A DNA stretch of 64,000 nucleotides from a virus. Location: positions 7,251 through 71,250 of the IMG/VR virus record IMGVR_UViG_2648501160_000003; one strand, given 5' to 3'. Numbering within the stretch: position 1 is the stretch's first letter; each line of letters begins with the position of its first letter. The notes beneath the pieces were generated by a model. That model saw only the letters and a list, made by a program, of their open reading frames with translations. It had not been told where the DNA came from and searched no databases. Made by a program: the position numbers and the translations under genes. Of the stretch, positions 12,526-49,613 are shown piece by piece.

Positions 12526-13902
12526 TTGGCAATATTAGGCTTTAGCTACAATATTTCTGATAAGCTTAATCCAGAGCAAGCCACGCTTTTTGCTCAATGG
12601 ATTGGTGCTGCCAATGTGATCCGAAATCAAAAGATTAATGAATATAAAACCTTTCTAAAAAGCAAAACACCAGAGCTTATCGCTCAAGGTTACGCTTCCA
12701 TTAAAAACAATCCTGAACTCTTATTTTTAAAAGACATTCCCGTTCAACTTTTACGCAATGCAGCAGGTTCTGTTTACTCTGATGCGGAAGCCGCGAAAAA
12801 AGGACTACGAAAGTTTCCAAAAATTAAAAACAAGTTTAAAAAACGAAGTGTTGTTTTAACTAAAGAAATGTTCTTTGTTGAGCCTTTCGAGAATGGCTCT
12901 CGGATCGTGATTAACAATCATGCCAAAGCGAAGCGAAGAATTGTGTTTTCATTGGTTGTTCCCCACAAGCCTGAGCAAATCGGGAATCAAATCAGGCTTT
13001 CACGACAAGGTGCAAAATTCACTTTATCTGGCAGTTTTGATGATGGTCGCTTGGCTTTAGATGAAAAACAGATCCTTTCAGATTTGTCGCATTTATCTTA
13101 TGAAGAGCTTGAGCTTAAAACCACTGGTGTTGATAGAGGTGTTGCGCTTCACCTTTGTTCTAGTGATGGATTTTCAGTTACTTACAGCCCTGAAGAAATA
13201 GCGCGTAAAAAGCGCAGAGCGAAAAAGATAGCGCATTATCAGCGCATTCTAGCTCGCAAAAAGCGACTGAATAAGAACAAAACCAAAGCTTGTGAAACAA
13301 ATCAGCAGCGTATCGTACAAGCCAGGATCAGCAGACTTCAAGCGAAAGAGTCCGATTGCCGAAACGATCATAATCACCATATTTCAAAAGCATTAGTCGA
13401 AAGTGCCAATCAAATTATTGGTTTAGAAGATCTGAATTTAACAGGTATGACGAAACGTGCTGCGCCTAAGAAGAATGAAGATGGCAGAGGTTATGCGAGA
13501 AATCGAGCTAGAGCGAAAAGCGGTCTGAATCGTGCCTTACTTAGTGTTGCGCTTGGACAACTGGCGACTTATATCGAATATAAAGCCCGTAAAATAGGTA
13601 AAATTGCAATTAGCGAGCTAAATCCAATGAATAGCTCAAAAGAGTGTGCTTGCTGTGGAAGCTTAAATACAGAGCGACTAGACCAAGCGACTTTTAAGTG
13701 CTTATCATGCGGAAATGAAGATAACGCTGATGCAAATGCATCAAAAGTGCTGAAAAAACGACTGATACATTACATTAAAGAGAATACGTTTGCCAAAAGC
13801 AAAACTCGTAAAAGTATCGTGAAAAGAAAGAAAAAACTGGCTGACAGAACCGACACCAGTATAAAAACGAGAGACAGAGAAAGCGCGGTGCTAACGTCCT
13901 AG
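12526..13902 (+). CDS. tnpB: TnpB-family RNA-guided endonuclease (IS200/IS605 OrfB-like), long variant
   Basis: RuvC-I TGVDRGVA, RuvC-II IIGLEDLNL, zinc finger CACCG...CLSCG, RuvC-III NEDNADANASKV. 458 aa. No tnpA nearby. Confidence 0.75.
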   Translation: MAILGFSYNISDKLNPEQATLFAQWIGAANVIRNQKINEYKTFLKSKTPELIAQGYASIKNNPELLFLKDIPVQLLRNAAGSVYSDAEAAKKGLRKFPKIKNKFKKRSVVLTKEMFFVEPFENGSRIVINNHAKAKRRIVFSLVVPHKPEQIGNQIRLSRQGAKFTLSGSFDDGRLALDEKQILSDLSHLSYEELELKTTGVDRGVALHLCSSDGFSVTYSPEEIARKKRRAKKIAHYQRILARKKRLNKNKTKACETNQQRIVQARISRLQAKESDCRNDHNHHISKALVESANQIIGLEDLNLTGMTKRAAPKKNEDGRGYARNRARAKSGLNRALLSVALGQLATYIEYKARKIGKIAISELNPMNSSKECACCGSLNTERLDQATFKCLSCGNEDNADANASKVLKKRLIHYIKENTFAKSKTRKSIVKRKKKLADRTDTSIKTRDRESAVLTS

Positions 13903-14511
13903 CGGTGTTAGTCATAAGACCATAAAACTATGGCACCTTTCGCCCGATATTTTATATCGGAGATGTTTCTAATAGGACGAATATTTGGGCTTCGGCATCA
14001 ATTATTCAGAAACCCAGCCCTTTAGGGCTGGGAGGTTCATTTAACTTACGTCCTAACTCGGAAATGTATACCATCAAACCAGATGATACACCTAGAGAAG
14101 TTCTGTCCAAAGTTGTGCTGATGGGGCATGTAACATGAACCTGCCAATACAAAACGTTATAGCCTATGAGTCAGAACTCATCTATGCTCACTAACTTGCT
14201 TACATTACCTAATTAATCAATATGATATATGTAAGCATACATCTTTCTCATATTATAATTTACTTATTGATTTATTTGACCAGTTCAATTTTAAGTTCTT
14301 TTGTACGAAAACCGTCAACATGCAAAATTCTCTTTTATCCTTATAAACTAGCAAAAGAGTAATGGCTTCAGACTGTACCAAAAGTGATTCCGACTTTATC
14401 AAATCAGCAATCTATCTTAGCCACCAGCATGTTTGGCATTTTCCTCGGATGTTTTGAGGTTTTTTGGGGATTTTAGAACAGGCACATATTCTCAAATCTA
14501 AGTATTTATTT

Positions 14512-49252: not shown

Positions 49253-49613
49253 GGTTATCTGTGAGGCTTTAAAAGTTGCGAATATGAGTAAATCAGCGAA
49301 AGGTGACAGCGAAAACCACGGCAAGAATGTCGCAGCTAAATCGGGATTGAATAAGTCCATTCTAGATCAAGGTTGGCACGAATTACGTCGCCAGCTTGAG
49401 TATAAGATGCGCTGGAAGGGCGGGATTTATGGAGAAGTAAATCCACGCAATACCAGCCGTGAATGTGCTTCCTGTGGTCATACTGAAAAGGAAAACCGCA
49501 AAACTCAGGCAGAGTTTATTTGCCAGTCCTGCGGTCATTCAGATAATGCCGATAAAAACGCTGCTAAAGTGATCTTAAATCGCTATTTACGCGAGTTAGA
49601 ACAAGCGGCATAA
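49253..49613 (+). CDS. tnpB: TnpB-family endonuclease, exon 2
   Basis: VICEALKVANM (RuvC-II E), zinc finger CASCG...CQSCG, RuvC-III SDNADKNAAKVI. The frame is continuous with exon 1 if the intron spans 46729..49252. Confidence 0.65.

Follow-up and report, generated by a model that had tools for sequence, protein, structure and literature searches.

Three tnpB genes of a Vibrio cholerae megaplasmid lie in separate IS200/IS605-type elements, one of them interrupted by a group II intron

The DNA considered here, referred to as the window, is a stretch of 64,000 nucleotides (positions 7,251 to 71,250) of the IMG/VR record IMGVR_UViG_2648501160_000003. It corresponds to bases 342655-406654 of CP007655.1 (GCA_001045415.1), an 896,006-bp Vibrio cholerae record in which the 458-aa TnpB protein of the window is encoded at 355180-356556. 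CP007655.1 is Rep.3, the third replicon of V. cholerae O1 El Tor TSY216 (Okada et al. 2015, PMC4480378). The window contains three tnpB genes, tnpB1, tnpB2 and tnpB3, each within its own insertion sequence (IS), designated IS-1, IS-2 and IS-3 (Table 1). Open reading frames (ORFs) and Pfam matches agree with the original prediction of three TnpB-family genes at these places, one intact, one frameshifted and one split by an intron. TnpB1 matches OrfB_IS605 (30.6 bits) and Cas12f1-like_TNB (53.8 bits). The HTH_OrfB_IS605, OrfB_IS605 and TNB domains of tnpB2 are distributed over two overlapping frames (28474-28731 and 28643-29602), and those of tnpB3 over two ORFs, with HTH and OrfB_IS605 in 45842-47248 and TNB in 49230-49613. 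The three proteins are 25-30 % identical in pairwise comparisons and no nucleotide similarity is detectable among the three elements; the genes are thus strongly diverged and not recent duplicates, as had been proposed. The predicted order of RuvC-I, RuvC-II, zinc finger and RuvC-III is accompanied by a complete RuvC Asp-Glu-Asp triad and a CxxC...CxxC finger in the first and third copies. It does not hold in full for the second copy, which has lost the RuvC-II glutamate to glycine (D/G/D).

The three elements are built on a common plan. A 5-nt transposon-associated motif (TAM) is followed by a left-end hairpin, the tnpB gene, a structured 3' region that extends over the end of tnpB and the right-end hairpin, and finally the flank. 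DNA folding predicts hairpins at all six element ends (z -1.75 to -4.3), the weakest being the left end of IS-1 and the mutated right end of IS-2. Rep.3 carries three copies of IS-1 and two each of IS-2 and IS-3. Comparison sequences from Rep.3, from related Vibrio megaplasmids (sister plasmids) and from other genomes are given below by locus labels (L followed by a number) where coordinates are needed, and a slash marks a junction.

Table 1. Features of the three tnpB elements and of the intron in IS-3 (window coordinates)
Feature	Position	Strand	Remarks
TAM TTGAA	12364..12368	+	directly 5' of IS-1
IS-1, tnpB-only IS200/IS605-family element, 1672 bp	12369..14040	+	ends common to three copies
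IS-1 left-end hairpin (CCCCTTCC..GGGAGGGG)	12369..12420	+	DNA fold -8.1 kcal/mol, z -1.75
tnpB1, 458 aa, intact	12526..13902	+	D203, E301, D402
IS-1 omega-RNA-like scaffold	13861..14040	+	ends in right-end hairpin 14013-14032, then ...GTTCAT
IS-1 omega RNA, predicted guide (TTAACTTACGTCCTAA)	14041..14056	+	from TnpB biology, in which the flank beyond the right end serves as guide
TAM TTTAG	28342..28346	+	directly 5' of IS-2
IS-2, ISDra2-like tnpB-only element, 1339 bp, decaying copy	28347..29685	+	clean insertion relative to the V. vulnificus FORC_036 plasmid
tnpB2, frameshifted	28474..29602	+	A7 run 28624-28630; Glu269 to Gly, codon 29279-29281 GGA
IS-2 predicted guide / target segment (CTATTCAAAATCAGAG)	29686..29701	+	predicted; similar to the twin copy's right flank (TTATTCAAAATGAAGA)
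TAM-like 5-mer TACAC	45555..45559	+	5' of IS-3
IS-3, IS609-like tnpB-only element, 1677 bp plus 2518-nt intron	45560..49754	+	insertion relative to two sister plasmids (L007, L015)
tnpB3 exon 1	45842..46728	+	HTH, RuvC-I Asp213
Group II intron, 2518 nt	46729..49246	+	5' GTGCG ... CCTAC 3'
Intron-encoded protein, 634 aa (reverse transcriptase, maturase, HNH)	47242..49146	+	intron nt 514-2418
tnpB3 exon 2	49247..49613	+	RuvC-II Glu302 at 49263, zinc finger, RuvC-III Asp398
IS-3 omega-RNA-like scaffold and right-end hairpin	49600..49754	+	ends ...ATGTCAA
IS-3 omega RNA, predicted guide (AAAGCCCTCGGATGTT)	49755..49770	+	predicted

The boundaries of IS-1 emerge from its copies. The two other Rep.3 copies (L004 and L005) are ~96 % identical to that of the window and have only 12364-14040 in common with it, and nothing beyond; the adjacent thyA gene was considered as IS-1 cargo and rejected on the same ground. 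For the L004 copy, a sister plasmid preserves the empty site, which reads ...tctTTGAA/AACACC without target duplication. The empty site and the common ends therefore define IS-1 as a 1672-bp unit inserted 3' of TTGAA with no duplication. TTGAA precedes the element at 12 of 12 IS-1-type sites, comprising the three Rep.3 copies and nine distant family members. Only 157 bp separate the left end from the tnpB1 start. The right-end hairpin has a z score of -3.7, and distant members have equivalent left and right hairpins with a GCTTTAGC loop. TnpB1 itself belongs to a little-studied clade of longer proteins (450-500 aa) from marine gammaproteobacteria, to which solved structures match weakly, and its triad is invariant in a 17-sequence family alignment. 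Judged by its sequence, the TnpB/omega-RNA part of IS-1 appears fully functional. A sister plasmid also contains a 255-bp IS-1 relic (L046 2001-2255; NZ_CP097357.1 7464-7718), which is 93 % identical to window 13733-13987 and retains the 3' end of tnpB with some of the omega-RNA region but not the right-end hairpin.

Do relatives of this gene have a TnpA partner? A genome scan with the TnpB1-family alignment, from which 15 loci were fetched (13 of them near full length), identified relatives in Photobacterium, Nitrincola, Vreelandella (eight copies), Marinomonas and Pseudoalteromonas. In 10 of the 13 near-full-length distant loci, a divergent ORF of 149-159 aa lies ~70 bp upstream of tnpB, and all five of these ORFs that were tested match Y1_Tnp (E 1e-38 to 2e-41). 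These elements have in common the TTGAA/C left junction and the ...GTTCAT end. Because the relatives with Y1_Tnp keep the same junctions, hairpins and end, IS-1 is a tnpA-less member of an IS605-type family.

The window itself is devoid of a recognizable TnpA gene. Neither Y1_Tnp nor a resolvase was found in a Pfam scan of the 105 window ORFs of at least 70 aa (among the best 25 of 41 matched families, to E ~2e-4), and tblastn of five cognate Y1 TnpA proteins against the six window frames detected no TnpA (best E = 1.3). The profile scan and the tblastn search together bear out the claim that no Y1 or serine-recombinase tnpA adjoins any of the three genes. In PLSDB, tblastn with one cognate TnpA matched 3113 records, 34 of them from Vibrio, in an output that is silent on whether the sister megaplasmids are included.

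IS-2 is delimited in the same manner. Its four copies in three plasmids (window, L005, L012 and L013) are all preceded by TTTAG and end in ...ATCAC, and the same IS occupies different sites in sister plasmids. The empty site of the window copy lies at L006 2547 of the FORC_036 plasmid, within a 124-codon gene, and shows no duplication. The left-end hairpin is strong (z -4.3) and the right-end hairpin weakened (z -2.0). The tnpB2 frameshift consists of one extra A in the A7 run; deletion of one A yields a 375-aa protein that aligns end to end with ISDra2 TnpB (E 8e-71), and unbroken 375-aa relatives (95 %) in sister plasmids have A6 and read IIVETLK. A second Rep.3 copy, the twin, is 99.8 % identical to the window copy and differs from it at three positions. 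At 29280, the window has GGA where the twin has GAA, encoding the RuvC-II glutamate that all relatives keep, and the differences at 29657 and 29661 fall in the arm of the right-end hairpin, which folds weakly in the window. The window copy thus bears the marks of decay in its frameshift, its Glu-to-Gly substitution in RuvC-II and its weakened right-end hairpin. The twin, for its part, has a ~297-bp insert within the right-end hairpin (L005 2933-3228; CP007655.1, ~816.2 kb), flanked by GATAGG direct repeats, which may be a small non-autonomous element.

Not all of these marks are equally trustworthy. Homopolymers are miscounted by 454 reads, and near the IS-2 frameshift the sister plasmid differs by 1 nt in other homopolymers. 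The Rep.3 assembly was built on 454 reads (18x) and patched with Illumina data (PMC4480378), and the tnpB2 frameshift may therefore be an artefact; this is less likely for the Glu-to-Gly substitution. Elsewhere in the window, two 1-nt homopolymer deletions relative to a sister plasmid (14323 and 14463) break an 82-codon ORF for which all sisters have an annotation. Whether 454 errors or genuine decay, they bear on the trust to be placed in the frameshift.

Loss of the RuvC-II glutamate also invites a functional interpretation, in which tnpB2 would encode a nuclease-dead RNA-guided repressor of the TldR type, or would be expressed by programmed frameshifting at the A7 run, which is the same in both Rep.3 copies. 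However, the glycine is private to the window copy, since the 99.8 %-identical twin and all relatives keep glutamate, and the gene still lies within IS ends whose right hairpin is mutated as well. Programmed frameshifting is likewise contradicted by the relatives, which have A6 and an unbroken ORF, and by the 454 assembly, prone to homopolymer miscounts, with its other 1-nt indels nearby. Both roles were rejected on the private glycine, the IS ends and the A6 relatives, and we regard them as scarcely credible.

IS-3 resembles the other two elements except that its tnpB gene is interrupted. Two sister plasmids lack the interval 45555/45560-49754, and the ends agree with those of an intron-less copy in V. 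fluvialis. The four copies compared are preceded by TACAC (window and L014) or AACAC (L010 and L050), with otherwise unrelated upstream flanks, and all end in ...ATGTCAA. The hairpins have z scores of -2.9 (left) and -4.1 (right). Splicing in silico restores an intact tnpB3 ORF of 417 aa with the triad D213/E302/D398. The product is 97-99 % identical to unbroken 417-aa proteins (99 % to the one labelled P0156) and 47 % identical to IS609 InsQ-type proteins.

In the IS-1 and IS-3 families, the omega-RNA-like 3' region covaries. For the last 180 nt of nine IS-1-family elements, RNAalifold gives a consensus of 39 pairs, 28 of them compensatory by its own count, and 30 of the 39 show changes on both sides. 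In the consensus, 90.5 % of cells are paired, vs 32-42 % when the partners are slid by 1-3 columns, and none of 500 shuffles reaches the observed values. The covariation analysis also covered the IS-3 family, for which RNAalifold on four sequences (one with a TnpB 55 % identical) returns 44 pairs, 12 of them compensatory, and the two Rep.3 copies of IS-3 alone display two compensatory changes in the right-end stem. No omega-RNA family of Rfam matches at threshold, and a permissive scan gave only a weak HgcC match at 49668-49761 (E 0.55). The search for omega-RNA scaffolds that had been suggested thus failed at the level of known families and succeeded at the level of covariation in IS-1 and IS-3. 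In both elements, the pairing pattern points to a structured RNA that spans the tnpB 3' end and the right end of the element, and that would be expressed together with the adjoining flank as its guide.

Do these genes still belong to transposons, or have they been recruited by the replicon? The original prediction considered them candidates for a domesticated role rather than classical IS elements. Under domestication, the genes would no longer be parts of transposons and would act as a maintenance or defence nuclease or as a regulator, which is compatible with the lack of tnpA in the window and with a replicon full of genes of unknown function. However, all three genes are situated between intact IS ends, with hairpins, beside a family-specific TAM, and each IS is present in 2-3 copies on Rep.3 at unrelated sites. 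Comparison with related genomes, as had been recommended, reveals variable presence: sister plasmids have empty sites at the window positions of IS-2 and IS-3 and, for IS-1, at the orthologous site of another Rep.3 copy. One copy is also visibly decaying. Domesticated TnpB relatives (TldR and Fanzor-type proteins) are single-copy, syntenic and without transposon ends, which weighs against domestication here; the three tnpB loci do not occupy fixed orthologous positions without bounded ends across the megaplasmid family. The empty sites already largely refute domestication, which we consider very improbable. The ISfinder subgroup IS1341 is defined by tnpB without tnpA. A stand-alone tnpB gene is not unusual, since the majority of tnpB genes have no tnpA and depend on mobilisation in trans (Meers et al. 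2023, PMC10055086). The homing or maintenance nuclease role envisaged for TnpB, by contrast with domestication, agrees with its accepted function.

We propose, with a probability of roughly 85 %, that the window carries three unrelated, non-autonomous, tnpB-only (IS1341-type) insertion sequences of the IS200/IS605 family, each independently inserted in the Rep.3 backbone. In this scheme, a Y1 (HUH) TnpA supplied in trans would excise the top strand as a circle and paste it 3' of another TAM, following the ISDra2/ISGst model. TnpB with its omega RNA, whose guide would be the first ~16 nt of the right flank, would cut the seamless empty site left by excision, and recombination with a sister copy would restore the element. 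The TnpA and TnpB steps, namely top-strand excision and cleavage of the empty site, reportedly have their basis in work on ISDra2. Restoration of the element at the donor site by TnpB has been described (Meers et al., PMC10055086). The intron would be an independent retroelement, with the conserved tnpB stretch just 5' of the RuvC-II Glu codon as its homing site.

Several observations weigh against this proposal. TnpA was likewise not found by tblastn with the five Y1 TnpA proteins in ~100 kb of other Rep.3 and sister-plasmid sequence. The empty sites corresponding to IS-3 in sister plasmids read AAAAC where the occupied site reads TACAC, a 5-nt difference at the motif, so that the no-scar test is not clean for IS-3; without a perfect empty site, the assignment of WACAC as the IS-3 TAM rests on four copies. 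Finally, the target sites of the IS-2 twins, ATTTAG/CTATTCAAAATCAGAG and ATTTAG/TTATTCAAAATGAAGA, share not only the TAM but also 10 of the first 12 bases of the right flank.

The first of these observations raises the possibility that the elements are stranded fossils, that is, genuine IS that no longer move in a cell without a compatible TnpA and whose TnpB and omega RNA are idle or drifting. Consistent with stranding, no TnpA is present in any Rep.3 sequence examined, IS-2 is decaying, and a sister plasmid retains the IS-1 relic described above. In addition, IS-1 copies differ by ~4 % and IS-3 copies by 7-9 %, and most transposition is therefore not recent. However, tnpB1 and spliced tnpB3 keep full-length ORFs with invariant catalytic residues, and the same IS are found at different sites in sister plasmids. 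The 99.8 % identity of the two IS-2 copies implies a recent move. V. cholerae chromosomes carry the IS200-family element IS1004, which also weighs against stranding. We consider stranding possible but unlikely; on the proposed reading, the elements may still be mobile, with TnpA presumably acting from elsewhere in the cell.

The likeness of the twin IS-2 sites deserves separate consideration. The two copies are inserted in unrelated genes and in different reading frames (window 28342-28346 and 29686-29701; L005 1603-1607 and 3250-3265), and the in-register alignment of the sister empty sites marks both flanks as native. Ten or more matches among 12 bases would arise by chance with a probability of ~1e-4 per TTTAG site, or ~1e-3 over the approximately ten copy pairs inspected. 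Paralogous target genes were rejected as the cause, given that they encode unrelated proteins and are interrupted in different frames. The in-register alignment of the sister empty site led to rejection of a second cause, in which 11 nt of donor flank would have been captured. Co-conversion of the flank is unlikely, as position 1 is unconverted and the changes relative to the sister are synonymous and at third positions.

Targeting by the TAM alone does not predict such likeness, and guide-influenced target choice would, in this one case. The omega-RNA guide of one IS-2 copy would then have directed, or strongly biased, the insertion of its daughter to a seed-matched TAM site, which would account for 99.8 %-identical copies in unrelated genes whose sites are nevertheless alike beyond the TAM; the flank bases concerned form the TnpB target seed, which Y1 TnpA is not known to read. 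However, this is a single pair, and some ten other copy pairs show nothing similar; among the Vreelandella IS-1-family copies (~97 % identical), the flank likeness amounts to T-rich matches at 8 of 12 positions and is not convincing. Position 1 of the guide is mismatched, and both IS-2 copies are frameshifted, so that the nuclease would need to have come from another copy. TnpB, moreover, reinstalls the element at the donor site and does not specify new ones (Meers et al., PMC10055086). We therefore regard guide-directed insertion as doubtful, and the pair as no more than a hint of guide-influenced target choice. If it were true, TnpB and omega RNA would bias transposition to seed-matched sites, possibly by opening an R-loop in which TnpA finds single-stranded DNA or by making a break repaired from the IS copy; plain IS605-family elements would then display RNA-guided transposition in a primitive form.

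The sequence that interrupts tnpB3 is a group II intron. Rfam family RF00029 (Intron_gpII) matches its domain V/VI at 49163-49246 with 56.3 bits (gathering score 40), and the match ends where the intron ends. The intron termini, GTGCG and CCTAC, agree with the group II boundary consensus (5' GUGYG, 3' AY). The intron-encoded protein matches RVT_1 (1e-32) and Intron_maturas2 (2e-26); its match to AI2M-like_HNH is weak (4e-4, 20.5 bits, below the 23-bit cutoff). The intron-less IS-3 of V. fluvialis PG41 is colinear across 46728/49247, and intron-less 417-aa proteins read ...SKNHAMVICEAL... across the junction, bearing out the predicted junction reading ...ISKNHAMVICEAL.... The colinearity of intron-less alleles places the intron between a His and an Ala codon, five codons 5' of the RuvC-II Glu codon. 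Candidate exon-binding sites at intron nt 220 (EBS2) and 276 (EBS1) would pair with exon positions -13..-8 and -5..-1, respectively. Production of TnpB3 would depend on splicing of the intron, and the omega-RNA region, ~350 nt downstream, is untouched by it.

Comparison of intron alleles suggests that this intron is mobile in its own right. The second Rep.3 copy of IS-3 also contains it, with no difference over 2518 intron positions vs 131 differences over 1684 IS positions (7-9 %), and outside the intron the two copies first differ 16 nt upstream of it and 63 nt downstream. The intron-encoded protein is identical in both. An identical intron in diverged IS copies is the pattern left by recent homing when the recipient copy had diverged beforehand. 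The intron also occurs, at 99.9 % identity, in another copy of IS-3 on a third V. cholerae contig, and in Idiomarina the same intron (92.4 % identity without gaps) interrupts the homologous codon of a tnpB gene 44.6 % identical to TnpB3. The alleles lie at window 46729-49246, L010 3488-6005, L050 4888-7405 and, in Idiomarina, L047 2488-5005. The intron thus sits at the homologous codon, ISKNH/A, of tnpB genes 45-96 % identical in Vibrio and Idiomarina, and its site, AAATCAGCAAGAAyCA/CGCAATG, is conserved between the two genera; the 30-nt site in full is AAATCAGCAAGAAYCA/CGCAATG. All inspected alleles of this intron are in tnpB, and it appears to home into tnpB specifically. No report of a tnpB-specific group II intron turned up in a single search of the literature, which is a weak basis for claiming novelty. 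The Idiomarina host gene (L047 1691-5282) would encode only 357 aa after splicing, without the zinc-finger region, and is probably a pseudogene that still has an intact intron.

The replicon that hosts these elements had been described as phage-like, a description that our comparisons do not uphold. Rep.3 has 37.3 % G+C, 999 coding sequences (960 of unknown function) and 66 tRNAs; it is kept stably at 37 C and lost at 42 C, in keeping with plasmid-like maintenance (PMC4480378). The DNA polymerase I and TnpB clusters of the window are common to 880-940-kb plasmids of V. parahaemolyticus and V. vulnificus, and the window aligns with four such megaplasmids in PLSDB at 88-97 % identity. Megablast of 50 kb of the window against 50,697 phage records returned no match, and DNA polymerase I was the sole PHROGs match among ten large window ORFs. 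Scans of IMG/VR revealed distant relatives only for TnpB2 (at most 39 %) and TnpB3 (at most 55 %), and none for TnpB1. A phage origin is ruled out by the megablast and PHROGs results together with the 896-kb plasmid-like record and its 66 tRNAs; the window is part of a giant plasmid with megaplasmid relatives.

Rep.3 is rich in IS605-family elements. Further tnpB genes occur on it and at the end of the related V. cholerae contig (L050); an example at L005 8086-9303 on the minus strand encodes 405 aa with HTH, OrfB and TNB domains. Directly upstream of IS-1, the thyA region differs from that of sister plasmids, which have one thyA gene on the minus strand (L002 1794-2647, compared with window 10793-12297 and 14041-14240). 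The window keeps only the 3' 154 codons of that gene, at 81 % identity vs 96.6 % just outside, and a complete, divergent thyA on the plus strand (~72 % nucleotide identity) adjoins this remnant; in all, ~3 kb in the window takes the place of 357 bp in sister plasmids. Other Pfam matches include a GIY-YIG nuclease ORF and a 545-aa PBECR5 (polyvalent-protein nuclease) ORF (window 7027-7773, 53493-55130 and others), as well as ART-PolyVal, TraF_2, SIR2, NDK, Band_7 and two PTH2 genes.

The lack of tnpA that first drew attention to these genes changes nothing in itself, for stand-alone tnpB is the rule in IS1341-type elements and the replicon is a known Vibrio megaplasmid. The elements do provide three cleanly delimited natural TnpB systems with the TAMs TTGAA, TTTAG and WACAC and with delimited omega-RNA-like regions, and the TnpB1 clade could interest those mining compact RNA-guided nucleases. 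The intron lineage appears to home into the RuvC-II-coding stretch of tnpB and would represent a retroelement that parasitises the nuclease gene of a DNA transposon. It offers a natural case for studying how splicing may gate TnpB production with the guide RNA untouched.

How do these elements compare with known systems? IS609 and ISDra2 carry a Y1 TnpA. Autonomous IS605-type elements (IS605 and IS609) have the divergent tnpA-tnpB layout that recurs in the IS-1 relatives of Marinomonas, Pseudoalteromonas, Vreelandella and Nitrincola, and the window elements differ in that tnpA was lost or never had. They agree with the IS1341 subgroup of IS200/IS605 in their hairpins just inside both ends without terminal inverted repeats, 5-nt TAM, absence of target duplication (seen for IS-1 and IS-2), absence of tnpA and multiple copies. 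They also resemble ISDra2 in the structured RNA region that overlaps the tnpB 3' end and the right end, whereas the TAM of ISDra2 is TTGAT. With the TnpB-omega RNA model of ISDra2 and ISGst (Karvelis 2021; Meers 2023, PMC10055086), the window elements share the RuvC triad and the zinc finger, and they differ in their host replicon, a 0.9-Mb megaplasmid, and in the longer TnpB1 (458 aa). TnpB2 is like TldR in being without the RuvC-II glutamate; unlike TldR, the change affects one of four near-identical copies, in a frameshifted gene within transposon ends that has no conserved host-gene partner.

The intron of IS-3 has its closest parallels in two systems. The natural homing site of the group II intron RmInt1 lies in the insertion sequence ISRm2011-2 (PMC1802570). 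Both RmInt1 and the window intron have a homing site within a gene of another mobile element and therefore spread among copies of that element. The host gene of RmInt1 encodes a DDE transposase, whereas that of the window intron is tnpB, for an RNA-guided nuclease. RmInt1 is without an endonuclease domain, whereas the protein of the window intron has the weak C-terminal HNH match below the Pfam cutoff, and the site of the window intron is conserved in tnpB genes that belong to two genera and are only 45 % identical. In IStrons, a group I intron is fused to an IS605/IS607 tnpB element (PMC10690162, PMC4227781). IS-3 is similar to IStrons in that a self-splicing intron is physically joined to a tnpB element. 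However, an IStron is an intron over the full length of the transposon, and at its 3' end splicing is in competition with the omega RNA. In IS-3, by contrast, a group II intron lies within the tnpB ORF, at least 250 bp upstream of the omega-RNA region, and interrupts the protein rather than the guide RNA.

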